NCBI GenBank assembly: GCA_026395685.1 | Contig: JAPLYG010000006.1 | Coordinates: forward strand, 4,943 to 68,942 | Length of the DNA stretch: 64,000 nucleotides | Direction of reading: 5' to 3' | Origin: Candidatus Parcubacteria bacterium | Lineage (GTDB): Bacteria; Patescibacteriota; Patescibacteriia; CAIXNZ01 | Shown: piece by piece, positions 5,664-61,481 of the stretch | Layout: each line of letters opens with the position of its first letter | How positions within the stretch are numbered: the first letter of the stretch is position 1 | Notes under the pieces: generated by a model | Database searches by the model: none | Told to the model about the DNA's origin: nothing | Seen by the model: only the letters and a program-made list of their open reading frames with translations | Program-made: the position numbers and the translations under genes

Positions 5664-5903
5664 ATGAAAGCATCCGAGAAGAGAGTTCCCAAAGACCCCG
5701 ACCTTGATGCTCTAGACTATGGGCTGATTGGCTGGGGTCTAGCCCAACTGGCAACACTTTTAATTATTGCACTTATACAGTTGTACTTTTACATTTCTGG
5801 AAGGACCAATCCCTTAAGCCCAAACGAATACTTCTTGTACGCATTTCTCATCAGCGTAGCTGTCGGCTTCTTCTGCAACTGGAAAGCCGAGTCAACAAAA
5901 TGA
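5664..5903 (+). CDS. Small two-TM membrane protein. Hypothetical. GC-richer than its surroundings.
   Basis: GGGAGG Shine-Dalgarno sequence 7 nt upstream of the ATG. Two hydrophobic helices. Followed by a strong terminator. Confidence 0.5.
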   Translation: MKASEKRVPKDPDLDALDYGLIGWGLAQLATLLIIALIQLYFYISGRTNPLSPNEYFLYAFLISVAVGFFCNWKAESTK

Positions 5904-5909
5904 ACCATT

Positions 5910-5943
5910 CCGCCGAGGTCACCCGACCGCGGCGGCTTTTTTA
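5910..5943 (+). terminator. Rho-independent terminator
   Basis: Hairpin ccgccgaggtcacccgaccgcggcgg followed by TTTTTTATT. Confidence 0.75.
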
Positions 5944-5947
5944 TTGC

Positions 5948-6084
5948 TACTAATATACTAATTAACTACTAATCTACTAATAAAAGAAATTCCCCCGTGA
6001 AATGGTTGACTAATTGGTAATTTAAATGTACTATTCGTATATTCGTAGCAAATTAGTAGATTAGTAACAGTAGATTAGTAACAT
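5948..6084. repeat. Palindromic element with inverted repeats ACTAATCTACTAAT / ATTAGTAGATTAGT flanking a ~65-bp core
   Basis: The arms at 5948-5984 and 6051-6084 are reverse complements. The core carries the promoter-like TTGACT-17-TACTAT. Confidence 0.5.
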
Positions 6085-6202
6085 ATGAGGAATTACGCCC
6101 AAAAAACCAATAAACAAATGACACGATATCGTACTTCGAGTACGTTTAGAGGTAATGTTAAATTTTTGCAAAAGCCGGTGCCGAAGAACTTCTCCCAACA
6201 TC

Positions 6203-6330
6203 CAATCATCAATAATCAATCATCAAACAAATTTTAACCTCCAAAATCAAATTACCCAATATGTTTGGGATTCATTATTTATATATTAGATATTGTTTGA
6301 TTATTGAGATTTGATTATTGATTATTATCC
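6203..6330. repeat. Empty MITE-like palindromic element of the AATCAATAATCAA family
   Basis: Left arm caatcatcaataatcaatcatcaaacaaatttt and right arm gtttgattattgagatttgattattgattattatcc are inverted repeats. The same family brackets the four-helix-bundle gene at 61657. Confidence 0.55.
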
Positions 6331-6380
6331 AAGCAACCTCATATAACCTAATAAAACTTAATATAACGTCATACAACCTT

Positions 6381-7691
6381 ATGCAATACACCTACACTAC
6401 AAAAAAACTCCCCAAATCCCAGCTCGAAATCAATGTTACTGTGCTTCATGACGAACTGGCTCCTTTTTTAAAAAAAGCAGCTGAAGAAATTTCCCAACAG
6501 ACAAAAATCGAAGGGTTTCGTCCCGGCAAAGTACCTTACGAAGTATTAAAGCAAAGAATAGGCGAGGTAAAAATTTACGAAGAGGCGGCAATGATGGCTG
6601 TTGAAAAATCATACATTGAAATCGGGACCAAGGAAAAATTTGAACCCCTGGGCTCACCTAAGATTGATCTGGAAAAATTAGCGCCGGGGAATGATTTGAT
6701 TTATAAGGCAACTGTTGATTTAATTCCTGAAGTAAGGGTAGGAGACTTTAAGGCCATTAAAATTAAAGAGAAATTAATCAATATTACAAAAGAACAAATC
6801 GATAAAGTAGTTGATGAAGTCAGAGAAATGAGAGCAACTGAGGTCTTAGATAAAAAAGCAGTAGAAATGGGAGATAAAGTTGAACTAGATTTTGAAGTCT
6901 TGCGCGACAAAGTTCCGATCGACGGCGGGTCTCAAAAAAAATACCCCCTGGTTATCGGCACCGGTCAATTTATCCCGGGCTTTGAAGAAAATTTAGTCGG
7001 CTTAAAGACAGAGGAAGAAAAAGAATTTGAATTAACTTTTCCGGAAAAATATCATAATAAAAATCTGGCTGGCAAACCTGCAACCTTTAAAGTTAAAATC
7101 CTGGCTGTATATAAAAGAACTTTGCCTGAAGCTAATGATGACTTTGCCAAATCCCTGGGACAAGATACCATGGATAAACTGAAAGCTTCAATTGAACATA
7201 ATCTGGAGCACGAAGAACATCACAAGGAAGAAGAAAGAATCGAAATCGAAATGCTGGAAAAAATAATTGACAAATCAACCTTTGAAGAAATTCCTGATGT
7301 TTTGGTCACGGCTGAAACCAATAAAATGATTCAGGAAATGGAGGCTAACATTCTGCGCGAGGGTATGAAATTTGAAGATTATCTTAAACACCTGGGTAAA
7401 ACTCGCGATCAGCTAAAACTTGATTTTGTGCCTCAGGCGATTAAAAGAGTAAAAAGCGCTTTGCTAATCAGAAGTATTTTTTTAAGTGAAAAAATGGAAA
7501 TACCGGAACATGAAGTTGATGTCGAGCTTGAATCGCTGACTCATGCTTACCAGACTTATCCGGAAATGATAAAAAATATTCAAACGCCTCAATATCGGGA
7601 ATATGTCCGTAATATGGTCGGCAATCACAAAGTCATGAACCTATTAAAGGCAGCCTGCATTGAAAGAACAAACCCGGAACATAAATGTTAA
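6381..7691 (+). CDS. tig: Trigger factor
   Basis: EINVTV...KIEGFRPGKVPYEVLKQRIG is the trigger-factor N-domain signature, followed by a PPIase-like middle domain. Start taken at MQYTYTT, ATG at 6381. The tracked start at 6318 lies inside the palindromic repeat. Confidence 0.85.
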   Translation: MQYTYTTKKLPKSQLEINVTVLHDELAPFLKKAAEEISQQTKIEGFRPGKVPYEVLKQRIGEVKIYEEAAMMAVEKSYIEIGTKEKFEPLGSPKIDLEKLAPGNDLIYKATVDLIPEVRVGDFKAIKIKEKLINITKEQIDKVVDEVREMRATEVLDKKAVEMGDKVELDFEVLRDKVPIDGGSQKKYPLVIGTGQFIPGFEENLVGLKTEEEKEFELTFPEKYHNKNLAGKPATFKVKILAVYKRTLPEANDDFAKSLGQDTMDKLKASIEHNLEHEEHHKEEERIEIEMLEKIIDKSTFEEIPDVLVTAETNKMIQEMEANILREGMKFEDYLKHLGKTRDQLKLDFVPQAIKRVKSALLIRSIFLSEKMEIPEHEVDVELESLTHAYQTYPEMIKNIQTPQYREYVRNMVGNHKVMNLLKAACIERTNPEHKC

Positions 7692-7702
7692 AAAGAAAAG
7701 GG

Positions 7703-7730
7703 GACGCTAATTTACTGGCGTCTCTTTTTT
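7703..7730 (+). terminator. Rho-independent terminator of tig
   Basis: Hairpin gacgctaatttactggcgtc followed by TCTTTTTT. Confidence 0.7.
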
Positions 7731-7737
7731 GTCGGTG

Positions 7738-7850
7738 AACAGTGAATTGGTTAAGAGGCTGGTAGGTGATTGGGGTAAGTGTAAGGTGTTTCAGGGACTC
7801 AACACCTAACCATTACACTTACTAGCATCCAAACCCAAACACTTTGCACT
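7738..7850. repeat. ~100-nt imperfect-hairpin intergenic element (family H: GGTGAAyaGTGAA...GCTGGTAGGTG...CACTTACyAGCATCC)
   Basis: Shares start and end motifs with the copies at 8636, 8744, 11650, 36930 and 39556. Its arms are reverse complements of each other. Confidence 0.55.
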
Positions 7851-8014
7851 CTGGCTAATATTAGCCTCAACCTTGACAAAATACCATAATTGTGATACTA
7901 TAAGATGATTGCTCTTTAATAACTACAACATTTGATATCGCGGGAATTAGGCGGGCATTTAGCCCAGAGTCCGAAACTTTTGGTCGATTAACCGAAAAAA
8001 GAAGGAGACTGAAG

Positions 8015-8584
8015 ATGAAGAAAGGGATTTTGCTCTCATTGGTTCTGTTGGCTCTGACCATGTCCGCCGCAACCTGCGACGAAACGACAAACGGAAATAC
8101 TCAGTCCGGTCATCGCCCTGATCAGATCATTGTGCGGCTGGACAACGACACCATCACCGACCTCGTTATTGGCGACATGATTCCTCTGGTGAAATTCCAC
8201 GTCAGACCGACGACAGGCGGAATTCAAATCCTGTCTTTCAAGTTCGCTACTGTGGATTTCCCTCATCCCTACGAAGTCGGCTCCTGCGAATTGCAGGATG
8301 TTGACGGCAACAAACTTAACTACGGATCTACCGGTGGTTATTCTATCGAAGACCCCGATATCTGGCAATATACCGTCTACTTTGAAGAGAACCCCGAAGA
8401 CTACGGGGACATGTTCAACCCTGTTTACGTAGACGCTGTCGGACAATCTTTCATCCTGTCTTGCGATATCCTGTCGGAAAGGCCGATCGATATCGACTTA
8501 CTGGAAATTGATTACGACTCGAACGGCATCGAATACAAAATCGACCCGAACACCTCCCCGATTTTCGAAGTACACCTGGAGTAG
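8015..8584 (+). CDS. Lipoprotein, family member 1 of 3. GC-rich. Hypothetical.
   Basis: Signal peptide with a lipobox (LTMSAATC). AAGGAG Shine-Dalgarno sequence. GC is roughly 55% against a ~33% background. Shares the motif FKF...G....C.L.D..GNKLN with the 10144 gene. Confidence 0.6.
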   Translation: MKKGILLSLVLLALTMSAATCDETTNGNTQSGHRPDQIIVRLDNDTITDLVIGDMIPLVKFHVRPTTGGIQILSFKFATVDFPHPYEVGSCELQDVDGNKLNYGSTGGYSIEDPDIWQYTVYFEENPEDYGDMFNPVYVDAVGQSFILSCDILSERPIDIDLLEIDYDSNGIEYKIDPNTSPIFEVHLE

Positions 8585-8598
8585 TGTCTTTCTTCTCC

Positions 8599-8630
8599 CG
8601 GGCGCGAAAACAACATCGCGCCCTTTTTTT
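8599..8630 (+). terminator. Rho-independent terminator. Its hairpin is shared with two other genes.
   Basis: gggcgcgaaaacaacatcgcgccc followed by T8. The hairpin recurs at 9855 and 11626. Confidence 0.8.
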
Positions 8631-8635
8631 ATTAG

Positions 8636-8742
8636 TGCATGGTGTGAGGGTAAAGAGGCTAGTAGGGAATTAGGTTAAGTATTTTAACACTCTCACACAA
8701 AACCCTTCACTTACCAGCATCCTAACCATAACCACTTTTATT
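8636..8742. repeat. Family H hairpin element, copy 2
   Basis: ...taaagaggctagtaggg...ttaggttaagtattttaacactctcacac...cacttaccagcatcc. Confidence 0.5.
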
Positions 8743-8743
8743 A

Positions 8744-8862
8744 GTGAATGGTGGGGGTAAAGAGGCTGGTAGGTGTTAATTGTTTAGGTTAAGTATTTTA
8801 ACACTCTCTCACAACACCCTTCACTTACCAGCATCCCAACCATAACCATAACCCTAACCTTA
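8744..8862. repeat. Family H hairpin element, copy 3, tandem to copy 2
   Basis: ...taaagaggctggtaggtg...ttaggttaagtattttaacactctctcac...cacttaccagcatcc. About 85% identical to copy 2. Confidence 0.5.
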
Positions 8863-9019
8863 TAGCTAATATTAGCCCCTCTCTTGACATTTTATCCAAA
8901 ACGTGCTATACTTTTATATTGCTGAACCTTAACAATAATGGTTAATAACCTTTGAAAATACGTCTTTTTGAGGCAAAAATCAACCAAAAAACGAAACACC
9001 TAAACAAAAGGAGTTCTAG

Positions 9020-9841
9020 ATGAAGAAAGCCATGATCGCTGTGTTCTGCCTGATGTTCGCCCTGTTCGCCAACGCCTGCATGTATGCCGGCGATGAAGGC
9101 GACAACAACAACAACATCACCATCAACGACGGCGATACCGTCGTCTACGAGACCGGCGCCCTGTACCACTTCACGGCCTACGCGGCCTATGGACAGGATG
9201 CCTGGCTCCAGATCCAGAACCTCGAAACCGACGAGTGGAACAGCGAGCTCATCACCGTAACGACCGAGACCATGTACCGATTCCTGGAACCGGGCGAGTA
9301 CCGGATCTGGATTTCGGGCGTCAATGGCGCTTTCGACTGGTACGGCCACATTTCCGTCCAGGAAAACGTGGTCACCGACGTCTACGCTGAGTTTCACGAG
9401 TACACCATGGTCAACATCTGGATGGCCAGCAACGCCAGCACGCCGAGCGGTATGAGTCCGATCGGCAACTATACCCAGGTGTTGAAGTTCGACCTGGCTC
9501 ACGACTACCCGGAAGCCATCTCGATTAACGACCTAGGATTTACCCTTTGGGCAAGTCCCACAGTCGTCATCGAAAGCGCAACCCTCTGGGTCGTCCGCGA
9601 AAACGGCTGGGAAGAGGTTGCGACCTCCGTGAATCTGGGAGATAACTTCTTCTACCTGGATCTCGGAAGGTTTGTCCCTCTTTATCCCGGCGTGACGCAG
9701 TTCATGCTCACCGCCGAGATCACCGGGGCTTATAACGGCGATGTTCTGCAGGCCGAAATGACGATGGCCGGCTACACCCCCGACATCTTCACCAGAGGCA
9801 ACTTCCAGTCCTTCGCCATCGGCAACATTCTCACCTTCTAA
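9020..9841 (+). CDS. Lipoprotein, family member 2. GC-rich. Hypothetical.
   Basis: Lipobox LFANAC. AAAGGAG Shine-Dalgarno sequence. GC is roughly 58%. Ends at the shared terminator. Confidence 0.6.
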   Translation: MKKAMIAVFCLMFALFANACMYAGDEGDNNNNITINDGDTVVYETGALYHFTAYAAYGQDAWLQIQNLETDEWNSELITVTTETMYRFLEPGEYRIWISGVNGAFDWYGHISVQENVVTDVYAEFHEYTMVNIWMASNASTPSGMSPIGNYTQVLKFDLAHDYPEAISINDLGFTLWASPTVVIESATLWVVRENGWEEVATSVNLGDNFFYLDLGRFVPLYPGVTQFMLTAEITGAYNGDVLQAEMTMAGYTPDIFTRGNFQSFAIGNILTF

Positions 9842-9854
9842 ACAAACCCGCACA

Positions 9855-9887
9855 GGGCGCGAATACAACATCGCGCCCTTTTTTTTA
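9855..9887 (+). terminator. Rho-independent terminator, shared hairpin
   Basis: gggcgcgaatacaacatcgcgccc followed by T9. Confidence 0.8.
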
Positions 9888-10143
9888 TTCGTTAAACGAT
9901 ATTTGGTACCTGCCTGTCGGCAGGTCGAAGTTCGTTACGTTTTTAGTCAATCGTTTTTTTGTCACTTTTAACGTTAACCTATTAACGTAACGGAAAACGA
10001 ATCTAATCTTAGCCATTGACTTATCCTTCTAAATATTCTATATTTATATATAACTGTTTTTTGAAAAAATTAGCCTTGGGCTATAAAGATAGATGGAACA
10101 AAGCAATGAATAAAAACCCTCAGATGAAAACAAGGAGCTTCAG

Positions 10144-11601
10144 ATGAAGAAACTAATTTTGACGGTTCTTATCACGATTACGTTTTTTGCGGCTTCGTGT
10201 ACCTACAACTATAATGATAACAATTCCTACCTAAAGGACAGCAAGATCAACATTACTCTGTCCAACGATTCACCGACTGATGAAATTCCGCTTGGGGATC
10301 AGGTTCTGGCAGTTTTTCTGGTTAACACTAAAAACGCTGCTCAAATCCATGGATTGGAGCTGGATATCACAGACAACTACGACGACCCGCTGGATTTACA
10401 GTTCGTGAATTCCCTCTGGATTGAAGATGGCAATGGCAATCTCATCTATGAAGCCCAGAATATCAGTGACGGTTTTGACTTCTGGGGAGTATATAATATC
10501 CCTATCGGCGAGTCTGCCATCATAGTCAAGGGGCATATTACCTTTGGCGAGGACTATAACTCTCAGTGGAGTCCTCGGCCAGAATTCCAGGTGCTGGTCA
10601 ACGGCATCTATGGATCCGAAAAGATCTTACCCCTGTTTGGTCTGGCTAGTAATGCGATGATCCCCAAATTTCAGGGAATAACTTCGGTGTTTTCAGAATT
10701 AACTTCAGATTCCCCAATAGGTGATCTGGCACCGGGACAGGAAATTACTCTCTTTAAATTTAAACTTTGGACTGAAAATGGGAGCTACCTCTTCTGGGAT
10801 CCATTCTTTACTTTTACCAATTTCAATGGCCAATTGACTAATTGTTTTCTTCTGGACGAACAGGGTAACAAACTGAATGATACTTTTAGCATTGATTCGG
10901 TAACTAACCATATAAAATTGGGAAGAAATGATTCGGAAACACCCTGGGCATTAATTACCGCTTCAGGACAAACTTTTGCCCTCAGTTGCGACGTTTCGAC
11001 AAATAGCCCCAGCGAATACCTCAATTTTGGCCTTGCTGGAGCTAAATGGGAATCTGCCGATATTAACAACTGGCTATCAATACCGACGGAATATGCACAA
11101 GGTAACACCTTACACGTCGTGCAAGATCGAAAAATTTTTTTCAATCTTGCTGCTGATACCCCTCAACAAATTTTACCCGGCAATACTGTAACTATAATGA
11201 AGTTCTCAGTATATACCGGGTTCGGCGATATAAAGTTGTACTTGCTCGAATTTGCCTATAGTAATTACCAGGCTGGCAGTTTTTCTAACTGTAGGGTCCA
11301 AGACGAAAACGGCCAAAAAATAAACAAATTCGTCAATGGTTTTCGCCCACCCGGGACTAATATAATATACGAGGCTTATTTTTTTGGTCCTTCAACTGGC
11401 GTTTACCCTGGAGACAGTTATCCATTTACGATGATAACACCACAAGCAAAAACTTTCTTTTTATCGTGCAATATGGGCAACTTACCAGGGTATTCAACTA
11501 ACGTTGACCTTTCATTTATAAACTATTACTTCAGGACGGATTTGAATTATGAAATTTTCCCTCCAACTAATCCGATTCTGACAACCACAGTCCACCAGTG
11601 A
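10144..11601 (+). CDS. Lipoprotein, family member 3. It contains an internally duplicated domain. Hypothetical.
   Basis: Lipobox FAASC. Internal repeats FKFKLWTENGSYLFW...NCFLLDEQGNKLND and MKFSVYTGFGDIKLY...NCRVQDENGQKINK. Ends at the shared terminator. Confidence 0.6.
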   Translation: MKKLILTVLITITFFAASCTYNYNDNNSYLKDSKINITLSNDSPTDEIPLGDQVLAVFLVNTKNAAQIHGLELDITDNYDDPLDLQFVNSLWIEDGNGNLIYEAQNISDGFDFWGVYNIPIGESAIIVKGHITFGEDYNSQWSPRPEFQVLVNGIYGSEKILPLFGLASNAMIPKFQGITSVFSELTSDSPIGDLAPGQEITLFKFKLWTENGSYLFWDPFFTFTNFNGQLTNCFLLDEQGNKLNDTFSIDSVTNHIKLGRNDSETPWALITASGQTFALSCDVSTNSPSEYLNFGLAGAKWESADINNWLSIPTEYAQGNTLHVVQDRKIFFNLAADTPQQILPGNTVTIMKFSVYTGFGDIKLYLLEFAYSNYQAGSFSNCRVQDENGQKINKFVNGFRPPGTNIIYEAYFFGPSTGVYPGDSYPFTMITPQAKTFFLSCNMGNLPGYSTNVDLSFINYYFRTDLNYEIFPPTNPILTTTVHQ

Positions 11602-11625
11602 TCGAGGACAATCCCACAACCGCAT

Positions 11626-11655
11626 GGGCGCGAATACAACATCGCGCCCTTTTTT
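11626..11655 (+). terminator. Rho-independent terminator, shared hairpin
   Basis: gggcgcgaatacaacatcgcgccc followed by T6. Confidence 0.8.
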
Positions 11656-11762
11656 ATTTGGTGAACAGTGAAAAGGTAAAGATGCTGGTAGGTGGGAGGA
11701 GTAAGGGTAATGTCAATAAAGACCCGATACCTTACCATGTCACTTACTAGCATCCTAACCAA
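11650..11762. repeat. Family H hairpin element, copy 4
   Basis: ggtgaacagtgaaaaggtaaagatgctggtaggtg...cacttactagcatcctaacc. Confidence 0.5.
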
Positions 11763-11808
11763 AACACTTTACCTTTTGATTTACCGAAATAACTGCTAAA
11801 ATATAATC

Positions 11809-12312
11809 ATGAAAATGGCCATCGTCTCCGACTCCCACGATAACCTGCCTAATATTAAAAAGGCAATCAATTATATTAATAAACAAAAAATCTCCGTAAT
11901 GATCCATTGCGGTGATGTTTGCGCTCCGGTTATTTTGGGCGAATTTGCCAAGCTTTTCAAGGGCAAAGAAATTCATGTAGCTAAGGGAAATGTTGACGGC
12001 GATATTGAAGGCTTTAAAGCAATGGCAAGAAAATATCCCAAAATAATTTATCACGGCAATACGGGAAAAGTGGACATTGACAAGCTCTCAATTACTTTTT
12101 GCCACGAACCGTTTTTAGCCAAGAAAATGGCAGAATCTCAAAAATATGATTTTGTTTTTCACGGGCATACGCATAAGCCCTGGCAGGAAAAAGTCGGCAA
12201 AACGACAATTTTAAATCCCGGGACATTGGCAGGGCTTTTTAATAAAGCGACTTTTGCCATATTTGATACTGAGACAAAAAAAGCCCAACTTATTCTTTTG
12301 GAACAAATCTAA
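11809..12312 (+). CDS. Metallophosphoesterase of the YfcE/MJ0936 family
   Basis: The motifs DSHDN, HCGD, GNVDG and GHTHKP are in the order expected for the calcineurin-like phosphoesterase fold. Confidence 0.75.
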   Translation: MKMAIVSDSHDNLPNIKKAINYINKQKISVMIHCGDVCAPVILGEFAKLFKGKEIHVAKGNVDGDIEGFKAMARKYPKIIYHGNTGKVDIDKLSITFCHEPFLAKKMAESQKYDFVFHGHTHKPWQEKVGKTTILNPGTLAGLFNKATFAIFDTETKKAQLILLEQI

Positions 12313-12382
12313 AACACTATTCAATTTTATATAAAATAAAGAGGGCTCTCTTGAGTCCTCTTTTTGTTATAAGGTAGAAAAA

Positions 12383-12622
12383 TTATCCTGAAATTTCAAG
12401 ATCGCAGCTTTCTACCAATGCGCGACAATTAAACAAAAGCTTGCACTTGGGACAAAATACGCTGTAAATATCCTTCCTTTTCAACTCCTTCTTACAGCAA
12501 GGACAGGGAATCAGTACCGCCTTTTCCTGATAGGCGGCGAGCTCCGAAGTAAGCGCCTGTAAATCTTTTAACCTTTGTGTCGGGCACTGGGGTTCTCTAC
12601 CAGAGCTATTTTTTTTTGTCAT
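12383..12622 (-). CDS. Small zinc-ribbon-like protein. Hypothetical.
   Basis: Cys pairs CP...CPCC...CPKC. AGGAGGG Shine-Dalgarno sequence ahead of the ATG at 12620-12622. Confidence 0.4.
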   Translation of the reverse strand: MTKKNSSGREPQCPTQRLKDLQALTSELAAYQEKAVLIPCPCCKKELKRKDIYSVFCPKCKLLFNCRALVESCDLEISG

Positions 12623-12711
12623 TATTGGCCCTCCTTGACCTTTAAAGTTTTTTTTAAACACCCTGATTTGCTATAATAAAGAATATACATAATTCAATAA
12701 TTTTACAACTT

Positions 12712-13164
12712 ATGGAAAATATCCTAATAATCACCGGACAGCTTATATTAGCCGTTATTTTGGGCGGAATCATCGGGATTGAAAGAGAACGCATTGGCAA
12801 ACCAGCCGGCTCTCGCACTTATGCCTTGATCGCGATGGGCTCTACTTTATTAACAATCCTATCAATTCAGGGTTTCAGTAGTTATGCCAATTTTACACCC
12901 ACGGCATTAATTTCTCCCATTATTACCGGCTTAGGCTTTTTAGGCGCCGGGGTAATTATTTTCCACAAAGAGAAACTAGAGGGACTCACAACTGCCGCTG
13001 CCCTTTGGGCCATAGCCTCAGTTGGCATTGCCATTGGAATAGGGTGGTATTTAATTGCTGTTATTGCGGCAGCTTTAATTTTCCTTATCCTTTATATTGT
13101 CAGAAAAATCGAATTCAACGCTAAAAAGAAAAATACTCTCTGGGATTTATTTGACCGCAAATAA
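12712..13164 (+). CDS. MgtC/SapB family membrane protein
   Basis: ILAVILGGIIGIERE...R.YAL is the MgtC N-terminal signature. Four to five TM helices. Confidence 0.75.
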   Translation: MENILIITGQLILAVILGGIIGIERERIGKPAGSRTYALIAMGSTLLTILSIQGFSSYANFTPTALISPIITGLGFLGAGVIIFHKEKLEGLTTAAALWAIASVGIAIGIGWYLIAVIAAALIFLILYIVRKIEFNAKKKNTLWDLFDRK

Positions 13165-13184
13165 AAGCAGCCTGCTCTTAGCTT

Positions 13185-13787
13185 ATGATTATTAATCTTA
13201 ATCAACAAAACCCGGAACCGAAAAAAATTGAACAAATTGTTACTGTCCTGAAAAACGGCGGTATTGTTGTATATCCGACTGATACCATTTATGGTTTAGG
13301 CTGCGATATTTTCAATAAACCTGCCATAGAAAAAATTTATCGCTTTAAAAAACGGGAGGGGAAAAAGCCGCTGAGCATCATGTGCGCTGATATAAAGGAT
13401 ATCAGTAAATATGCCCTTATCCCTGATTATGCTTTTGTCCTATTAAAAAGATATTTGCCCGGACCTTACACTTTTATATTAAAAGCTAAAAATTCTATGC
13501 CGGGGAGTTTTTTATCAAAAAATAAAACTGTTGGCGTGCGTATTCCTGCCAATACTATATGCTTAGAAATAATTAAAGCCTTGGGCTCGCCAATTATTAC
13601 CACCAGCCTGAACCTTTCAGGAGAGCCGGTGCTAAGCTCGCCCTCACAGCTAAATAAAGAGGTGAAAAATCAAATTGATCTGATTATTGACCAGGGGAGT
13701 TTGCCGCAAATTGCCTCCACCATAGTTGATTTAACAGCTGACCCGCCGAAAATTTTACGTCAAGGCAGCGGCGAATTTGCCCTTTAA
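13185..13787 (+). CDS. tsaC: L-threonylcarbamoyladenylate synthase (TsaC/YrdC/Sua5 family)
   Basis: The motifs VVYPTDTIYGLGCD and KKPLSIMC are the YrdC-fold signature. Confidence 0.8.
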   Translation: MIINLNQQNPEPKKIEQIVTVLKNGGIVVYPTDTIYGLGCDIFNKPAIEKIYRFKKREGKKPLSIMCADIKDISKYALIPDYAFVLLKRYLPGPYTFILKAKNSMPGSFLSKNKTVGVRIPANTICLEIIKALGSPIITTSLNLSGEPVLSSPSQLNKEVKNQIDLIIDQGSLPQIASTIVDLTADPPKILRQGSGEFAL

Positions 13788-13824
13788 CTCTAAATTTAGA
13801 TTTTTAAACTTTAATATAATTTAC

Positions 13825-14097
13825 ATGAAAAAAACTATTCTAATTTTACTCCTCCTAATTTTATTAGTTATTTTTATTGCCTTCGCCGTCTCTACTATCT
13901 TTTTCCCGGAGAAAAAAATGCGCTACAATGACTGTGTTTTAATGCAAAACAAAAAAACGCTGGCTGTTGACTGCTTCGGCTGCGCCAATAATGTCTGCAA
14001 AGATGCTTCTCTTGACTGGGAGATCTATGCCGCGCCTGAAATCGGCATCCCCTATGCCTGTGAACAAACCCAAGCCGGCTGTAAATTGGTGCAATAA
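13825..14097 (+). CDS. Small secreted Cys-rich protein. Hypothetical.
   Basis: Signal peptide MKKTILILLLLILLVIFIAFA and six Cys. Start taken at the ATG at 13825. Confidence 0.45.
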   Translation: MKKTILILLLLILLVIFIAFAVSTIFFPEKKMRYNDCVLMQNKKTLAVDCFGCANNVCKDASLDWEIYAAPEIGIPYACEQTQAGCKLVQ

Positions 14098-14116
14098 AGT
14101 TAATTCTGTTACTTAT

Positions 14117-14341
14117 ATGCCCATCTTAAAAATAAGAGTTATTCCTAATTCTAAGATTAATAAAATAGTAAAACAGGAAGATAACTATCTAAAGATAAAG
14201 CTGTCCGCGCCTGCTCATGAAGGTAAGGCAAATAAAGCTTTAATTAAATTTTTAAGCCAGTATTTTAAAGTAGCAAAAAATAAAATAACCCTAATTTCTG
14301 GTGAAAAATCTCACGAAAAGATTGTCAGGATCGAGGATTGA
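14117..14341 (+). CDS. DUF167/YggU (UPF0235) family protein
   Basis: ILKIRVIPNSK...IKLSAPAHEGKANKALIKFLS is the YggU signature. It was trimmed to the ATG at 14117 so that it does not overlap the upstream gene. Confidence 0.7.
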   Translation: MPILKIRVIPNSKINKIVKQEDNYLKIKLSAPAHEGKANKALIKFLSQYFKVAKNKITLISGEKSHEKIVRIED

Positions 14342-14426
14342 CAAATTCCTAAAATTGATCTATGCTTTAATATTGCAGTATAGGATATCAAGACTAGGCA
14401 AACGAAAAACAAGGGAGGGAAAAAAC

Positions 14427-14906
14427 GTGAAAAGGACAGGCTTTTTGGTGTTGCTGCTTTGCTTGGTTGCCTCAATCAGCCAAAGCGAGACAAAACCCCA
14501 GCCTAAGCTGAAATCTTACCAGAGCCAAAAATTCGGCTTTATCGTCTCTGTTCCCGAAACCTGGAAAATTGATCCTGATGAAGCCAATGCTTATTATGCT
14601 CTTTATTCTCCTGAGGCCTTTACAGGCGCACATAATCGGTTAGATCTGACTTCAGGCATTAAAATAGAGATTCTTCCCCACAGTAATGAAGAACTGGAAA
14701 ATTTTTTTAGCCGCAATGATCTGCAACCGATACCCAATACGCCCAACCAGTACTATTTCCGGGATGCTGACTACTACTACCTTTTCACGGTTATTAAGGG
14801 ATCTCCCTGGAATTTTGTTATAATCGGGTACTTCCCTGAGAAGAAAAAAGAGGCCGAATACTTGCCTCTCTACCAACAGGTGATTAAGTCCTTTACTCTT
14901 ATTTAG
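14427..14906 (+). CDS. Secreted protein. Hypothetical.
   Basis: GTG start at 14427 preceded by GGGAGGG. Signal peptide VKRTGFLVLLLCLVASISQS. Confidence 0.45.
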   Translation: MKRTGFLVLLLCLVASISQSETKPQPKLKSYQSQKFGFIVSVPETWKIDPDEANAYYALYSPEAFTGAHNRLDLTSGIKIEILPHSNEELENFFSRNDLQPIPNTPNQYYFRDADYYYLFTVIKGSPWNFVIIGYFPEKKKEAEYLPLYQQVIKSFTLI

Positions 14907-15602: not shown

Positions 15603-15765
15603 TCTATTTTTTACCTATTCCTTCTTTAGAAACCGTTAATTTACGACGTCCTTTAAATCTTCGTCTTTTTAAAACTAAGCGCCCTTTAGCACTTTTCATT
15701 CTGCGTCTAAACCCATGGGTCTTTGCGCGCTTTCTTTTCTTAGGCTGATAAGTTCGTTTAGGCAT
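15603..15765 (-). CDS. rpmH: 50S ribosomal protein L34
   Basis: [36 protein letters not shown]. It is under 60 aa, so it is absent from the ORF track. Coordinates are accurate to about 1 nt. Confidence 0.85.
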
Positions 15766-21103: not shown

Positions 21104-21114
21104 AAAAAAAATAC

Positions 21115-23017: not shown

Positions 23018-23029
23018 TAAAATAAATTC

Positions 23030-49677: not shown

Positions 49678-49687
49678 AGTTTTACAA

Positions 49688-51301: not shown

Positions 51302-52072
51302 TCAGTCGGCTTTAACCGGGATTTTTTTCAGGTCAGCCGAGAGCATCCTGGCCAAAAGCTGCATGTCAGCCAGGGAAAGCTCATTATTGTGGATTCTCCG
51401 AAAAATGAAGGCGTCCAGTTTTCGGTAGTGATGGTAAGTGCCGTCGGGCTTGTAGTCGATGAATTTCCATGTCTCAGTGCAGCGACCTTCGCTATCCCGA
51501 TCGGGGATCAGGCCGCAAGAATCAGAGGGCGTGGCCTTGAGTCGCTGGTAATAGGCCAGTTCTTTTTTGTAGTCATAATGCCGGAGCAGATCAACTGCAT
51601 AGTCAACGATTTCCCTCCAGACCAGCTGCTCTTCTTTAGGCAAGGCCAGGAAAGCCTTATTGAAATAGGCACTTGCCCAGGGATAGGCGATCTGGCGGTA
51701 TTTTGCCGTATGAATTGTCTCGAAAACGGCTTTTTTCAGCTTGGGATTCGGGCAGTTTTCGAGGCTGGTCCGCGGAGAACAACATAAGTCTTCGGGCACA
51801 CCCTCCCAGAGATTGCCGGAATAGAGTAGTCCCATAACCAGGACTGCCTTTTTCCTATCGTTCACTTGGGAATAGAAATGGTAGCCCTCCTTGGACTTCG
51901 AGTAGAAAGAGTCCAGCGCCAGTTTGAGGACCTTTTCCCAGTTGCCGTCTCCAATGGACGGAATTCCTTTGGGCACCGGGGAAATGTTCCAGTCGGGCGC
52001 TGCTTGCGTCAGGCCCATCAGCAGGATGAAGCAGGCGAAGGCGAACACGGCAGTCAGGACTTTCTTTCTCAT
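51302..52072 (-). CDS. GC-rich secreted protein. Hypothetical.
   Basis: Start at MRKKVL, which follows AGGAGAAAGCTG. A signal peptide. GC is roughly 55%. Terminator tgcccgttcaacactgagcgggca followed by T7. Confidence 0.5.
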   Translation of the reverse strand: MRKKVLTAVFAFACFILLMGLTQAAPDWNISPVPKGIPSIGDGNWEKVLKLALDSFYSKSKEGYHFYSQVNDRKKAVLVMGLLYSGNLWEGVPEDLCCSPRTSLENCPNPKLKKAVFETIHTAKYRQIAYPWASAYFNKAFLALPKEEQLVWREIVDYAVDLLRHYDYKKELAYYQRLKATPSDSCGLIPDRDSEGRCTETWKFIDYKPDGTYHHYRKLDAFIFRRIHNNELSLADMQLLARMLSADLKKIPVKAD

Positions 52073-52234
52073 CAGCTTTCTCCTCTTGGTTGAAGGTGGT
52101 GTTGTTAGCCTAAATTTTCGCGATTTGTAATACGCCAATACACTTACCTACTAATATATTAAGTTAGTATAAAAATTTAAATTTGTCAAGTAATAAAAAA
52201 GCCCCGTGGTGCGGGGCGTGGCAGGATCCTATTT

Positions 52235-58819: not shown

Positions 58820-58894
58820 GCGGGTGTAGTTCAGTTGGCTAGAACGTTTCCTTGCCAAGGAAAAGGTCGCCGGTTCGAATCCGGTCACCCGCTC
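58820..58894 (+). tRNA. tRNA-Gly (anticodon GCC)
   Basis: Cloverleaf with acceptor gcgggtg/cacccgc. Anticodon loop ttGCCaa. T-arm gccgg-ttcgaat-ccggt. CCA is not encoded. Confidence 0.8.
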
Positions 58895-58946
58895 ATTTTC
58901 AATCTCGTGAACGATTAGGCCGTGGCCCGTCGCTCGCGAGCGACGG

Positions 58947-59033
58947 GCCGGGGTGGTGAAATTGGTATACACGAAGGACTTAAAATCCTTTGATAGCAAT
59001 GTCGTGCGGGTTCGAGTCCCGCCCTCGGCACCA
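58947..59033 (+). tRNA. tRNA-Leu (anticodon UAA), class II, long variable arm, encoded CCA
   Basis: Acceptor gccgggg/cctcggc. Anticodon loop ctTAAaa. T-arm gcggg-ttcgagt-cccgc. Ends ACCA. Confidence 0.75.
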
Positions 59034-59939: not shown

Positions 59940-60016
59940 CTTGACAGTATTTCATAAGTCTGCTAAAATGTTTTTGTTGTTTAGCAGAGTTAACTTTTCA
60001 CATTTAGGGGGAAACA

Positions 60017-60244
60017 ATGTCTCAGTGCCAGTACAATATTGATCCGGATCAACTTTTGGCAGTTATGGAGGAGGTAGAAACACAAATTCGTCAAAGTGAC
60101 ATCAGCCAAACGGATAAAGTCAGTCTTTATCTCCAGCTAAGTTTACTTTATGGATTAATGGGGGATAAAGATCAGCAAGAATCTGCCCGGTTACAGGCAC
60201 AAAAGCTATCTTCAGGAATTCAAGTTCTTGAAGACAGGGCATAA
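60017..60244 (+). CDS. Hypothetical small protein
   Basis: 75 aa. GGGGGAAACA Shine-Dalgarno-like sequence. A bidirectional terminator follows at 60285-60335. Confidence 0.35.
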   Translation: MSQCQYNIDPDQLLAVMEEVETQIRQSDISQTDKVSLYLQLSLLYGLMGDKDQQESARLQAQKLSSGIQVLEDRA

Positions 60245-60357
60245 TGCTTACAAATAGGTAGCTTTTTTTGTTTTCAGCGACCTGCCACGTTTATCGGGTG
60301 GGTCTTTTTTTTTGAAAAAAAAGCCACCCGGGAAAGGGGTGGCTGGTGGAGGTCCGC

Positions 60358-60588
60358 TTATTGTGGCGGCTTCCATCCTTTTGGCACTTTGAAGTACACA
60401 TCTGTTCCGGACCGCATGATCATATCGCCCATCAAGACGCTGACCATGGCGGTTTTGGAGCGGTCGGACAGTGGAAGAATAGAGACTTCTTCGAAGATTA
60501 CCTCGAGGACATCACCGAGCAGGGCAACCATGCCCTTTGTGTTTTGTCCTGCGGATCCTCCCATGTTATTCGTTGGCTGTGTTTGCAT
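60358..60588 (-). CDS. GC-rich hypothetical small protein
   Basis: GGGAGA Shine-Dalgarno sequence ahead of the ATG at 60586-60588. Terminator ccagccacccctttcccgggtggct followed by T8. Confidence 0.45.
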   Translation of the reverse strand: MQTQPTNNMGGSAGQNTKGMVALLGDVLEVIFEEVSILPLSDRSKTAMVSVLMGDMIMRSGTDVYFKVPKGWKPPQ

Positions 60589-60714
60589 GATTGTTCTCCC
60601 TTATTTCAAGAATTTCAGTTTAAATCAGTACATATAAATATAGCATAATTTAATAAGTCTGTCAATAACAAAAACCTTCCGGTGGGAATAGGAAGGTTTT
60701 GTTTTTTTGCATTA

Positions 60715-61101
60715 TTATGCCTGTTTTGCCGGCACATTGGCAGGATTAGTTGCCTTTAACCAGCCACCCAGCATTTTGCCTAAGCTATCAAGACTTTCGT
60801 GAATTTCTCCGTATTTATTATCAGATAACTGTTTTACATCTTTAGCCATATCAGCAAAGACTTTTAGGGTATCAAGTTTGCGCATCGCTTGTTTTAAGGT
60901 GCCAAACTTGTCTGTTTTGCTCTGTCTGGTGGCAATAACTATTAATTCCAATATTTCCAAAACCGTGATTTCAGAGCTTTTTCTTAAGGTATTATCTTCG
61001 CTTTTAGCCATATCTGCGCACTGCTGATATAGATTGTAAGAACGATCTAAAATAGGGAATTTTTCTGAAAAATTGTCTAAAATGTCTTTTGATTTTTGCA
61101 T
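60715..61101 (-). CDS. Hypothetical helical protein
   Basis: 128 aa, predicted all-alpha. Terminator aaaaccttcctattcccaccggaaggtttt downstream. Confidence 0.4.
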   Translation of the reverse strand: MQKSKDILDNFSEKFPILDRSYNLYQQCADMAKSEDNTLRKSSEITVLEILELIVIATRQSKTDKFGTLKQAMRKLDTLKVFADMAKDVKQLSDNKYGEIHESLDSLGKMLGGWLKATNPANVPAKQA

Positions 61102-61289
61102 ATAAGTTTAAGATTATTTATTTAATTTTTGCTTACAATTAGCCAAGATATTAAATTTTCAAGGTGCATATACAAGAGTTTATTGGGCCCTACTCTTGAC
61201 AAAATGTTATATATGTGTTAAACTATGTAATTAGGCAAAAAGGTTAAAATTTCTAACAAAACACTTCTTTGACCAGGAGGTAGATAATC

Positions 61290-61481
61290 ATGTCCAAACA
61301 GAGGGAACGATTTTTCCAGGCTTTCAATTGTCTCCCGAGCATCGTACGCAGTAATGCGTACCCGGACGCGGACTTGCTGGTGGAAAGAGGAATTAACTGC
61401 CTCTCGTCCAACGCCAGCTCGGAGGACTATTTAAAATTCTTCGAGCTCTACGACCAGGCCCCTGCCCAGCTTCGGGCATAA
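61290..61481 (+). CDS. GC-rich hypothetical small protein
   Basis: AGGAGG Shine-Dalgarno sequence. 63 aa. Terminator ccccgactttcaatagccgggg followed by T5. Confidence 0.4.
   Translation: MSKQRERFFQAFNCLPSIVRSNAYPDADLLVERGINCLSSNASSEDYLKFFELYDQAPAQLRA

Follow-up and report, generated by a model that had tools for sequence, protein, structure and literature searches.

A stereotyped class of Shine-Dalgarno-led genes with GC-rich synonymous codons in an AT-rich Candidatus Parcubacteria contig

We analyzed a 64,000-nt stretch (the window) of a Candidatus Parcubacteria metagenome-assembled genome (MAG) contig, in which twelve genes between 5664 and 61481 had been flagged as GC-rich islands. We found that the islands are one gene class of stereotyped build. 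Across the window and seven related loci, genes led by a strong Shine-Dalgarno (SD) site had raised GC at third codon positions (GC3), and two families, the porin-like family and the 9020 family, were GC3-rich at a conserved syntenic position in distant AT-rich relatives. The same genes are GC-rich in distant relatives, so the islands look more like a maintained design than like a remnant of recently arrived foreign DNA. Genes are named by their first coordinate.

Results

GC excess is confined to synonymous sites of coding sequences

Window GC was 0.392. It was 0.379 outside the SD-led genes, so the backbone has ~38% GC and not the ~33% first estimated. Of the twelve genes that the initial annotation called GC-rich, eight showed a clear rise (8015, 9020, 24411, 28072, 42548, 51302, 60358 and 61290; GC 0.49–0.59, GC3 0.58–0.83); in 5664, 10144, 27565 and 28895 it was marginal or absent. 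In the sliding-window check that had been proposed, all 400-nt windows with GC ≥ 0.49 fell within flagged genes. The eight genes lay 2.5–4.8 sd above 300-nt backbone windows in GC and 3.7–8.1 sd above 52 backbone genes in GC3 (sd 0.056). Mean GC3 of backbone genes was about 0.38 (0.377–0.379; 51–52 genes). GC3 was 0.584 in 16 SD-led genes compared to 0.377 in 51 backbone genes (p = 3e-7), with a gradient from 0.34 to 0.83 across the SD-led genes.

The excess was found at third codon positions and did not extend past either end of the reading frame: a 100-nt stretch, 51–150 nt before the start codon, had a GC of 0.24–0.43, compared to 0.49–0.59 in the GC-rich coding sequences (CDSs). Codons shifted to NNC over NNT (TTC 0.78 vs 0.16; AAC 0.75 vs 0.23) and to G over A (CAG 0.84 vs 0.50; CTG 0.45 vs 0.19), and amino-acid composition was nearly unchanged (GARP 0.21 vs 0.20; FYMINK 0.30 vs 0.35). 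GC3 was well above GC1 and GC2 in the annotated frame, with which the SD sites and signal peptides agree. Rfam returned two tRNAs only. Long ORFs occur on both strands in the GC-rich segments.

A comparison with ribosomal genes had also been proposed; the codon dialect of the islands was not shared by S16 (GC3 0.30, no strong SD) or by L34, which has a consensus promoter as in the class, yet no SD and AT-rich codons. S15 in locus L005 (GC3 0.37) and trigger factor (tig; GC3 0.34) were likewise outside the dialect. Because these ribosomal protein genes and trigger factor lack the bias, classical translational selection does not account for it.

Island genes coincide with strong SD sites and mostly carry their own expression signals

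The features outside the two groups described below are:

24299–24327 (+): promoter of the 24411 gene, TTGACA-17-TATTAT
24411–24731 (+): 106-aa protein with N-terminal membrane anchor; SD AAGGAGG; GC 0.58, GC3 0.83; terminator 24746–24776
35101–35412 (+): SD-led 103-aa multi-pass membrane protein; GC3 0.54
42435–42463 (+): promoter of the 42548 gene, TTGACA-17-TATTAT
42548–43126 (+): 192-aa lipoprotein; GC 0.59, GC3 0.81; terminator 43145–43178
51302–52072 (-): 256-aa signal-peptide protein; GC 0.52, GC3 0.65; promoter 52161–52189 (-), terminator 51266–51289 (-)
59941–60244 (+): class member with promoter 59941–59969
60017–60244 (+): its SD-led 75-aa protein; GC3 0.34, equal to backbone composition
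60358–60588 (-): 76-aa protein; GC 0.51, GC3 0.58; promoter 60637–60665 (-), terminator 60322–60344 (-)
61196–61558 (+): unit with promoter 61196–61224, SD CAGGAGGT and terminator 61527–61558
61290–61481 (+): its 63-aa protein; GC 0.53, GC3 0.67

The strong SD sites reported for the flagged genes were present in all twelve (duplex dG −7.5 to −12.2). At −7.5 or stronger, four further genes qualified within 5664–61481; those at 12383, 14427, 35101 and 60017 had been missed by the initial annotation. No strong SD was found in ~50 backbone genes, S16 and L34 included, with all start codons in the first 50 codons tried. The flagged genes coincide almost exactly with the strong-SD genes. Elsewhere in the genome translation starts without an SD; several genes have a −10 box 5–6 nt ahead of the ATG, and part of the SD-less genes are probably leaderless.

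The near-consensus promoter was likewise observed: nine of the twelve flagged genes have a TTGACA or TTGACT −35 box that is separated by 17 nt from a TAnnnT −10 box. Chance alone would give 0.69 TTGACA-N17-TAnnnT sites in the window; 14 were present, of which 11 drive SD-led genes. Intrinsic terminators were confirmed for 5664, 8015, 9020, 10144, 24411, 42548, 51302, 60358 and 61290 (a T-run behind a stem with dG of roughly −14 to −19). The structured leader hairpin described earlier was weak, with folding z-scores of −2.0 to +0.6 over nine leaders. The units are, as first proposed, insulated and mainly for surface or envelope proteins: lipoproteins (8015, 9020, 10144, 42548), signal-peptide or membrane proteins (24411, 28072, 51302, 5664) and small proteins without a family match. 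A search over 5.8 billion proteins found no homolog of the 42548 protein. The 51302 family is small (48 representatives) and had no match in Pfam. A bAvd-like gene lies between the 60358 and 61290 genes.

The 24411 gene occurs with identical junctions in an independent assembly (L001), which rules out misassembly for this gene. Because an independent assembly shares these junctions, the islands are not an assembly artefact.

Cassette content varies in slots of a conserved backbone

The features from 5664 to 14906, among them those of the slot between tig and a metallophosphoesterase gene, are:

5664–5903 (+): 79-aa small membrane protein; SD AAGGGAGGA; GC 0.45, GC3 0.50 (mild); terminator 5910–5942
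7735–7850 (+): intergenic repeat of ~110 nt, a long imperfect hairpin; more copies at 8635–8745, 8742–8860, 11660–11780 and 39570–39700
7853–7866: palindrome GCTAATATTAGCC, directly upstream of the 8015 promoter
7873–7901 (+): promoter of the 8015 gene, TTGACA-17-TACTAT
8015–8584 (+): 189-aa lipoprotein; GC 0.49, GC3 0.63
8600–8630 (+): terminator GGGCGCGAAAACAACATCGCGCCC, then T7
8864–8877: palindrome GCTAATATTAGCC at the 9020 promoter
8884–8912 (+): promoter of the 9020 gene, TTGACA-17-TATACT, TG-extended
9020–9841 (+): 273-aa lipoprotein; GC 0.56, GC3 0.80
9855–9885 (+): terminator after 9020, the second copy of the shared hairpin
10016–10044 (+): promoter of the 10144 gene, TTGACT-17-TATATT
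10144–11601 (+): SD-led 485-aa lipoprotein with three 8015-type repeats; terminator 11626–11656
12383–12622 (-): SD-led 79-aa class member; GC3 0.46; CxxC motifs
14338–14906 (+): class member with promoter 14338–14366
14427–14906 (+): its SD-led signal-peptide protein; GTG start, GC3 0.48

We found no promoter of its own for 5664, which starts 18 nt past the stop of the 3765–5645 gene and is therefore probably co-transcribed with it. Copies of the ~110-nt hairpin repeat punctuate the slot. The domain present once in the 8015 protein is repeated three times in the 10144 protein (GC 0.41, GC3 0.44 overall; ~0.55 in the first third only). These two proteins are 27% identical, whereas their terminators are 94–97% identical; the 8600–8630 terminator is equally close to the one behind 9020. 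The 9020 protein may be all-beta with two domains, according to a low-confidence model. The CxxC motifs of the 12383 protein suggest a zinc ribbon, and Pfam gave no match for it. This gene is kept at its position in L010 and L011, and the 14427 gene has syntenic orthologs in L010, L011 and L012.

In agreement with part of the first proposal, the genes lie in variable slots of a backbone that is otherwise syntenic, and slot content changes between relatives. The tig-metallophosphoesterase slot was empty in two relatives and held one to three differing SD-led genes in others.

Two families are GC3-rich in distant relatives

The three-gene array comprises:

27407–27435 (+): array promoter TTGACA-17-TATACT, divergent from TrmB
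27565–27942 (+): SD-led array gene 1, a 125-aa cytosolic-type protein; GC 0.41, GC3 0.44, not GC-rich
27944–28045 (+): first of three copies of the inter-cassette 3' unit, made of two hairpins and carrying GTTCTTTAAAnAT at the junction; the other copies at 28749–28850 and 29299–29400
28072–28746 (+): array gene 2, a 224-aa signal-peptide protein, predicted to be porin-like; GC 0.53, GC3 0.63
28895–29296 (+): SD-led array gene 3, a 133-aa protein; GC 0.45, GC3 0.55

The genes at 28072 and 28895, downstream of 27565, had no promoter of their own. The 28072 protein is predicted to form a 12-strand beta-barrel and ends in ...AEIVF. Array promoter and leader were kept in L002, L007 and L008, where the 3' unit also follows the ortholog. 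An SD lay upstream of 7/7 porin-like orthologs. The porin-like gene adjoined TrmB in L002, L004, L005, L007 and L008 with GC3 of 0.59–0.69 compared to 0.29–0.39 in the flanks; in L006, the most distant locus, the contrast was weaker (0.45 vs 0.35). TrmB of the window and of L002 are just 32–47% identical. Cassette content differed between the window and L007 despite TrmB being 85% identical at the DNA level.

One common slot holds the 9020 family in three places: the window, the P0016 contig (64% identity) and L013 (9436–10293; 26% identity, GC3 0.62 vs backbone 0.31). Overall, the GC contrast recurred in eight other loci from other samples. In an automated test of seven related loci, GC3 excess was +0.13 for SD-led genes (n = 24) compared to +0.005 for SD-less genes (n = 89; p = 4.5e-8). 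SD-led genes of L010 were not GC-rich (GC3 0.30–0.38). PurL and PurM of L002 had the class architecture and were GC-shifted at all three codon positions.

Equilibrium GC3 estimated from polarised synonymous changes was 0.55–0.56 in the porin-like family compared to 0.35–0.44 in four backbone families, and the W>S rate per site was 0.185 compared to 0.10–0.125. This pattern gave no sign of decay toward backbone composition, in a test that is saturated and pseudo-replicated.

A maintained design is the favored explanation

Our best explanation, held tentatively, is that the islands are flexible, fast-evolving envelope-gene cassettes in conserved slots whose GC-rich synonymous codons are maintained by a gene-specific force. 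In the stereotyped build, a near-consensus promoter (TTGACA-N17-(TG)nTAnnnT) is followed by an AU-rich leader of 40–120 nt, a strong SD site, a CDS rich in C- and G-ending synonymous codons and a strong terminator. The products are mainly fast-evolving envelope proteins (lipoproteins, a porin-like beta-barrel, small membrane proteins) together with a few small cytosolic proteins. The genes occupy a few intergenic slots within the conserved backbone. From one relative to another, the content of these slots turns over as genes are gained, lost or duplicated in tandem, or as one coding part takes the place of another while the flanks stay conserved. The force acting at synonymous sites would most likely be selection at the mRNA level, favoring either stable transcripts or, in a cell that has few ribosomes, efficient SD-dependent translation of envelope proteins presumed to be abundant; residual donor composition is a less likely source of the GC3.

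Such residual foreign composition is the chief rival, which we consider unlikely. In this version of the acquisition first proposed, the genes would come from GC-richer, SD-using donors (non-CPR bacteria or GC-richer CPR), spread among related Parcubacteria by homologous recombination from slot to slot and retain undecayed donor GC3. Slots empty in some relatives and differently filled in others fit this, as do the differing contents of the window and L007, proteins that are mostly orphans or have very few homologs, and a diderm-type beta-barrel that would not be expected in a CPR genome. Gene exchange in Patescibacteria is on record (PMC12455944). The joint rise of C- and G-ending codons resembles ordinary codon usage of high-GC genomes, the shift of PurL and PurM at three codon positions is expected of transferred genes, and the porin-like cassette (promoter and 3' unit) is more conserved than flanking TrmB between the window and L002, which is compatible with later spread between lineages. 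The graded GC3 of SD-led genes is equally compatible with acquisitions of differing age, and some SD-led genes are not GC-rich at all (60017, 0.34; 27565, 0.44; L010). However, the donor search first proposed found no homolog in any GC-rich genome, phage or plasmid, and no integrase homolog; porin-like homologs with readable DNA were all on AT-rich CPR-type contigs. No integrase, transposase or tyrosine recombinase was found in the window. What had been read as foreign composition is a third-position effect that begins at the start codon behind AT-rich leaders, persists in syntenic orthologs of only 26–40% protein identity in deeply diverged AT-rich relatives, and lacks the sign of decay. By the known relation of GC across codon positions, a donor with GC3 of 0.8 would have higher GC1 and GC2 than these genes.

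GC-biased gene conversion is improbable. The cassettes would be hot spots of inter-strain exchange through transformation and conserved flanks, with heteroduplex repair directed to G/C and thereby increasing GC where sites are unconstrained. Conserved flanks around diverged coding parts (as in 8015 and 10144), turnover of cassette content and a W>S rate ~1.5 times higher in the porin-like family would follow, yet the variable, non-identical leaders should then be enriched too and have 24–43% GC, and a modest excess is also seen in conserved, non-variable SD-led genes. The GC3 excess of +0.25 to +0.45 is moreover far above bacterial values, which Lassalle et al. in 2015 reportedly found to be far smaller. 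Integron-like site-specific capture, at least for the 27565–29296 array and the tig-metallophosphoesterase slot, with GC heterogeneity reflecting cassettes of mixed origin, is highly improbable: the single-gene units parted by a repeated structured 3' element with compensatory base changes, the three unrelated ORFs under one promoter and the junction motif GTTCTTTAAAGAT common to the leader and each cassette's 3' side recall it, but the window has no tyrosine recombinase, the 3' unit has no R''/R' core pair by eye, most islands come with a promoter of their own and end in an ordinary terminator, and they are dispersed among housekeeping genes. It also addresses mobility only and leaves the conserved GC3 unexplained. 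An artefact (chimeric assembly, contamination, or non-coding features rich in GC, for example RNA genes or the template repeats of a DGR) could be entertained given the MAG source, the long ORFs on both strands and the bAvd-like gene. It is effectively refuted by the L001 junctions, the like contrast in eight loci of other samples, the frame-specific GC3, the Rfam result and the absence of an adenine-specific repeat pair.

Comparison with known systems

The islands resemble the alien genes or genomic islets of the Lawrence and Ochman amelioration model in being single genes of deviant GC and codon usage, which encode orphan or hypothetical surface proteins and fill variable slots in a syntenic backbone. 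Unlike in those, the deviation here is limited to synonymous sites and CDSs and persists in syntenic orthologs over deep divergence, promoters are stereotyped and native-looking, and neither a donor lineage nor a mobility gene came to light. Sharp and Li, and Ma, Campbell and Karlin in 2002, are said to have related the codon bias of predicted highly expressed genes to strong SD sites. In such genes, too, a strong SD and a consensus promoter occur together with a strong terminator and a codon dialect of their own, in which NNY boxes favor C-ending codons, but here ribosomal protein genes and trigger factor have neither dialect nor SD, G-ending codons rise too and a GC3 shift of up to +0.45 is unusual.

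Integron arrays and the minimal mobile elements of Neisseria share single-gene units parted by repeated structured elements, and one flanked site with differing genes in related genomes. Unlike these, the islands have no integrase or recognisable attC cores, and most units each carry a promoter and a terminator; we infer homologous exchange via conserved flanks. GC-biased gene conversion (Lassalle et al. 2015) also gives higher GC3 in seemingly often-exchanged genes and a raised W>S rate, but the effect here is CDS-bounded and much larger than reported, with AT-rich leaders in the same units.

Full-text literature searches did not find a tie of an SD-led gene minority to GC-rich codons. In SD-poor systems, namely Bacteroidetes-type SD-independent initiation and Parcubacteria without an anti-SD motif (Tsurumaki et al. 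2022, PMC9297842), most genes likewise lack an SD and have A/T-rich upstream regions, and the −10 boxes just before the ATG are a further likeness. Unlike in those systems, a conserved minority of genes here retains a strong SD, and the anti-SD is therefore probably present and used in this organism.

Base composition of the window

The proteins of the window correspond to NCBI entries MCX67398xx (locus tags NTZ49_011xx-013xx). Its backbone genes include rnpA, yidD, dnaA, dnaN, trigger factor, S16, L34, RuvB, RuvC, YebC and a PBP1, and the window also carries numerous envelope-biogenesis genes and a type IV secretion pilin array. The initial annotation had flagged twelve genes, named here by start coordinate, as GC-rich islands on a backbone of about 33% GC. 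We place the backbone at ~38% GC instead, because GC was 0.392 over the whole window and 0.379 outside the genes with a strong Shine-Dalgarno (SD) site (the SD-led class). All 400-nt windows with GC >= 0.49 lay within flagged genes. Eight of the twelve (8015, 9020, 24411, 28072, 42548, 51302, 60358 and 61290) deviated from the host as a horizontally acquired islet would, with GC of 0.49-0.59 (2.5-4.8 s.d. over 300-nt backbone windows) and third-codon-position GC (GC3) of 0.58-0.83 (3.7-8.1 s.d. over backbone genes). The other four (5664, 10144, 27565 and 28895) were not distinct, and the GC rise in 10144 was confined to its first third. The island observation was therefore borne out in part.

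The GC excess was a third-position effect, with GC3 far over GC1 and GC2. It ran from the start codon to the stop codon or terminator; in the stretch between 51 and 150 nt 5' of the start codon, GC was just 0.24-0.43. Codon choice shifted to C- and G-ending codons (TTC 0.78 vs 0.16, AAC 0.75 vs 0.23, ATC 0.71 vs 0.22, CAG 0.84 vs 0.50, CTG 0.45 vs 0.19), and amino-acid composition was nearly unchanged (GARP 0.21 vs 0.20). The GC contents of codon positions 1, 2 and 3 follow a known relation, by which GC1 and GC2 of the class are too low for a donor of GC3 0.8; this argument is weakened because beta-rich secreted proteins have an atypical amino-acid usage.

The flagged genes are the SD-led genes of the window

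We observed that the flagged set was almost exactly the set of strong-SD genes. For all 12 flagged genes the energy of anti-SD pairing was -7.5 to -12.2 kcal/mol, in agreement with the good SD sites claimed for them. No SD was found in ~50 of the 66 genes when all start codons in the first 50 codons were tried, and relatives behaved likewise. By the strong-SD criterion the class also has members that had not been flagged:

12383-12622, minus strand, SD-led gene
14427-14906, SD-led signal-peptide gene
35101-35412, SD-led gene
60017-60244, SD-led gene
330-902, minus strand, further SD-led gene beyond the range of the initial annotation

The 12 flagged proteins had no Pfam or NCBIfam match, and the first four listed here had no Pfam match. 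The gene at 330-902 has a TTGACA-17-TAATGT promoter (930-958, minus strand), the SD GGAGGTG, a terminator and GC3 of about 0.5. Its 190-aa product combines sigma-70 region 4 with an RNA polymerase alpha C-terminal-like domain.

Mean GC3 was 0.584 in SD-led genes compared to 0.377 in the backbone (p=3e-7). The near-consensus promoters ascribed to the flagged genes were also real: TTGACA-N17-TAnnnT occurred 14 times in the window against 0.69 expected by chance, 11 of the 14 drove SD-led genes, and a TG-extended -10 box was frequent at class promoters. Intrinsic terminators were present after most flagged genes, as claimed, so that the strong promoter, SD and terminator sought in a test for highly expressed genes were all found. 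The description of each gene as monocistronic was not quite right, as 5664 begins 18 nt past the preceding stop, and 28072 and 28895 use the promoter of 27565. Structured leader hairpins did not hold up as a general element (fold z-scores -2.0 to +0.6). The genes highest in GC, 24411 and 42548, have leaders (24334-24410 and 42470-42547, respectively) whose SD can pair with an upstream UUCCU or U-rich stretch; possible SD sequestration there could serve translational control.

The SD-less backbone

Neither the ribosomal protein genes nor trigger factor shared the codon bias. GC3 was 0.30 in S16, 0.34 in trigger factor and 0.37 in S15 of L005, a related contig. L34 has a consensus promoter as in the class, yet its SD is absent and its codons are AT-rich (rpmH, 15604-15765, minus strand, ~90-nt leader). 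The codon dialect of the class was thus not that of the ribosomal protein genes (S16, L34, S15 of L005) or of trigger factor. Classical translational selection is not the answer, because these genes lack the bias.

In at least eight SD-less genes the end of a TATAAT-like box lies 5-6 nt 5' of the ATG, a spacing suggestive of leaderless mRNAs. Examples of SD-less backbone genes are:

11809, SD-less gene
17718, SD-less gene
20191, SD-less gene
23030, SD-less gene
23638, SD-less gene
24859, SD-less gene
37940, SD-less gene
40492, minus strand, SD-less gene

No rRNA lies within the window. The SD is kept in seven porin-like orthologs (see below), which argues that an anti-SD is present; the clade would then retain it for a minority of genes. 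An anti-SD motif is detectable in just 48% of Parcubacteria, and the SD-less backbone of the window fits that setting (Tsurumaki et al. 2022, PMC9297842).

GC3 excess persists across relatives

In seven related loci scored by an automated call, the SD-led genes (n=24) had a GC3 excess of +0.13 and the rest (n=89) one of +0.005 (p=4.5e-8). Across the clade the class is distinct: its genes are SD-led, have a stereotyped promoter and a GC3-rich coding sequence, and occupy variable slots. The excess in GC3 stops at the borders of the coding sequence and is kept in orthologs.

The porin-like gene 28072 lies between 27565 and 28895 in an array beside a TrmB gene. The porin-like gene adjoined a divergent TrmB gene in L002/L003, L004, L005, L007 and L008, and all homologs with readable DNA were in AT-rich CPR-type contigs. 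In these loci GC3 was 0.59-0.69 compared to 0.29-0.39 in the neighbours; the most distant homolog (L006) had a smaller excess (0.45 vs 0.35). With that exception, we observed no decay to host composition in orthologs of 26-70% protein identity, which retained GC3 of 0.59-0.69 against flanks of 0.29-0.39. Porin-like proteins were 36% to 76% identical to the window copy, and TrmB was 32-47% identical between the window and L002. Polarised synonymous changes gave an equilibrium GC3 of ~0.55 in the porin-like family and 0.35-0.44 in four backbone families, with a W>S (A/T to G/C) rate per site ~1.5x higher in the former; because the test is saturated and pseudo-replicated, and polarised counts regress toward 0.5, these values serve only as a contrast with the backbone.

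The porin-like family was seen in CPR-type contigs only, always with TrmB adjacent, and a paralog (P0009) lies on another contig of the MAG. CPR cells are thought to be without an outer membrane. The gene at 28072-28746 encodes a predicted porin-like beta-barrel of the diderm type; the protein carries a signal peptide, ends in a C-terminal Phe and is predicted to have 12 strands. The best Foldseek matches of its model were all outer-membrane barrels, with weak scores (E >= 7e-3); as the models of 28072 and 9020 are of low confidence (pLDDT 55 and 56), their matches indicate fold class only. Pfam PF16412 (DUF5020) matched just a distant homolog of the family, P0015.

The three genes of the array are unrelated. 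A common two-hairpin 3' unit, in which six pairs show compensatory changes, stands after each of them and also 3' of the orthologs in L002, L007 and L008:

27944-28045, window, two-hairpin unit after 27565
28749-28850, window, two-hairpin unit after 28072
29299-29400, window, two-hairpin unit after 28895
10688-10790, L002, two-hairpin unit
2538-2650, L007, two-hairpin unit
1116-1225, L008, two-hairpin unit

The unit had no Rfam match and is not a standard terminator, because it lacks a T-run. Its junction motif GTTCTTTAAAGAT is shared with the leader. Compared to the window, L007 had 85% DNA identity in TrmB, a different first cassette and just 73% identity in the porin-like gene. With flanks conserved and cassettes differing, the coding parts turn over between conserved flanks. 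The window copy of the TrmB regulator (26570-27291, minus strand) is broken into an ORF at 27061-27291 and another at 26570-27064, and in L007 the protein is intact at 240 aa; the break reflects either a pseudogene with a frameshift or an error in the assembly.

On the related 245-kb contig L002 (14277-19700), the genes for PurL (GC3 0.60) and PurM (GC3 0.55) are both SD-led and monocistronic, and their terminators are followed by an identical ~30-nt sequence (TTCGnTGATAGTATATCGTATAAAAGG). Both have the look of metabolic genes that were transferred and packaged as cassettes of this kind.

A variable slot between tig and a metallophosphoesterase gene

The window shares the gene order tig, metallophosphoesterase, yidD, rnpA, dnaA, dnaN with five GTDB genomes (L009-L013; tig 64-71% identical). 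The slot between the first two genes was empty in L010 and L011, and elsewhere its content differed, with one SD-led gene in L012, two each in L009 and L013, and three in the window (8015, 9020, 10144), the patchy presence at a conserved syntenic site that is looked for in an islet. A JGI contig had one SD-led gene there, and its protein (P0016) is 64% identical to 9020. Of the two L013 slot genes, one is homologous to 9020 (26% identity, E=1e-15) and has GC3 of 0.62 versus 0.31 in the backbone. Syntenic orthologs of the signal-peptide gene 14427 were present in L010, L011 and L012, and their GC3 excess was +0.03 to +0.16. L013 (CAYNWH010000013.1; GC 0.37) has the Parcubacteria order S16, TrmD, tig, metallophosphoesterase, Sua5, and its GTDB record, titled 'uncultured Gammaproteobacteria', is probably mislabelled or mis-binned.

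In the window, 8015 and 10144 are paralogs (27% identity), and the terminators of 8015, 9020 and 10144 are 94-97% identical. The palindrome GCTAATATTAGCC stands just 5' of the -35 box of these three lipoprotein genes (7853-7866, 8864-8877 and 10002-10014, the third copy degenerate) and may be a shared operator. Long imperfect hairpins of ~110 nt lie between the three genes, directly after the terminators, and elsewhere in the window:

7735-7850, long imperfect hairpin
8635-8745, long imperfect hairpin
8742-8860, long imperfect hairpin
11660-11780, long imperfect hairpin
39570-39700, long imperfect hairpin
~36921-37036, weak copy

The plus strand folds better (dG down to -45.6, z -5.7). We did not find this family in related loci; it may represent a structured RNA or a repeat of the MITE or REP type.

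Search for donors, phages and artefacts

The lipoprotein 42548 had no homolog among 5.8 billion proteins. We found one homolog for 9020, seven for 28072 and 48 representatives for 51302, none of these 48 with a Pfam family. Searches in IMG/VR, phages, plasmids and PHROGs did not reveal a donor lineage of matching composition, and the porin-like family, the sole query against GTDB representative genomes, had no match there. Phage delivery had been suggested; IMG/VR, PHROGs and tblastn of 50,697 GenBank phage records returned just two sub-threshold signal-peptide matches, and we rejected it. Plasmid origin was likewise rejected (tblastn of two proteins against PLSDB, no match).

Pfam scans of the backbone proteins showed no integrase or transposase. 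Rfam (at the gathering threshold) and ARAGORN gave only tRNA-Gly and tRNA-Leu (58820-59033), so the islands are not RNA genes, and no island adjoins the two tRNAs. The marks of an islet border (mobility genes, tRNA targets, direct repeats) were not found.

An assembly chimera, which the initial annotation had named as a possible refutation, was rejected. An independent Logan assembly (L001, ~97% identical) has 24411 with the same AT-rich junctions, and a contrast of the same kind recurs in other samples. A DGR was considered for the bAvd-like gene between 60358 and 61290 (60715-61101, minus strand) and rejected, since there was no TR/VR adenine-specific pair and no RT domain in the scanned proteins.

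What may maintain the GC3 excess

We infer that a gene-specific force at synonymous sites upholds the GC3 excess. The force we favour is selection on the mRNA. Messages for abundant envelope proteins could gain stability and efficient initiation from a GC-rich body preceded by an AU-rich leader with an SD. The main difficulty is that ribosomal protein genes lack the bias.

The main rival is horizontal acquisition, with a foreign composition that is slow to fade or repeatedly renewed. Gene exchange is documented in Patescibacteria (PMC12455944). Acquisition is favoured by the gradation of GC3 among SD-led genes, by the example of PurL and PurM in L002, by a beta-barrel that is out of place in CPR and by a cassette whose conservation exceeds that of its neighbour gene. 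The stream of foreign genes first proposed is only partly supported: slots vary among relatives, but a donor homolog, decay and a mobility gene were not found. GC-biased gene conversion could raise GC in coding sequences, but only if the variable leaders escaped it. An integron-like mechanism would bring in cassettes each followed by an attC site, an imperfect hairpin with R''/R' cores (RYYYAAC ... GTTRRRY). By eye, GTTAAGT stood 3' of hairpin 2 in two copies of the two-hairpin unit and the complementary R'' was absent; the scanned window proteins had no recombinase domain of an IntI tyrosine recombinase, and the composition would be left unexplained.

A wider arrangement is conceivable, which we regard as rather unlikely. 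Here selection would maintain two coupled regimes in a clade of Parcubacteria: AT-rich, SD-less, partly leaderless housekeeping genes, those for ribosomal proteins among them, and a conserved minority, chiefly genes of the changeable surface proteome, with consensus promoters, SD sites and GC-rich codons. If so, envelope-protein synthesis could be switched or prioritised via ribosome state (anti-SD availability) or mRNA stability.

We found no description of SD-GC3 coupling or of leaderless translation in CPR in the full-text literature, and the finding is best placed within known intragenomic codon-usage heterogeneity. Horizontal transfer is the routine call for GC-rich genes in AT-rich genomes, and island-prediction tools and amelioration-based dating assume as much. 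Because the composition travels with the expression architecture and persists in orthologs, composition-based calls would mislabel a native, maintained class in these CPR genomes. If the SD-tied force at synonymous sites is real, it offers a natural system for asking why GC-rich coding sequence is favoured and shows how SD-less and SD-led translation coexist under reduced ribosomes. The combination of SD, consensus promoter and high GC3 would also mark surface investment of ultra-small symbionts; the genes picked by it are likely host-interface proteins, mostly unannotated.

Other features of the window

Four genes encode four-helix-bundle proteins of the '23S rRNA intervening sequence protein'/bAvd-like type (34583-34945, 49751-50113, 60715-61101 and 61657-62025, all minus strand). 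They are very AT-rich (GC3 0.24-0.34) and are flanked by AT-rich tandem 50-nt and palindromic repeats:

6202-6327, AT-rich repeat
20967-21111, AT-rich repeat
34430-34579, AT-rich repeat
49687-49768, AT-rich repeat
61599-61685, AT-rich repeat
62035-62099, AT-rich repeat

The tandem paralogous type IV secretion pilin genes (PF18895; 43185-48228, minus strand), the last of which encodes a 462-aa pilin fusion, are SD-less and of backbone composition. Two tandem paralogs for small secreted Cys-rich proteins (23030-23518 and 23638-24120) are also SD-less, with GC3 of 0.26 and 0.32, and their upstream regions (22930-23045 and 23538-23653) are 92% identical over 116 nt.
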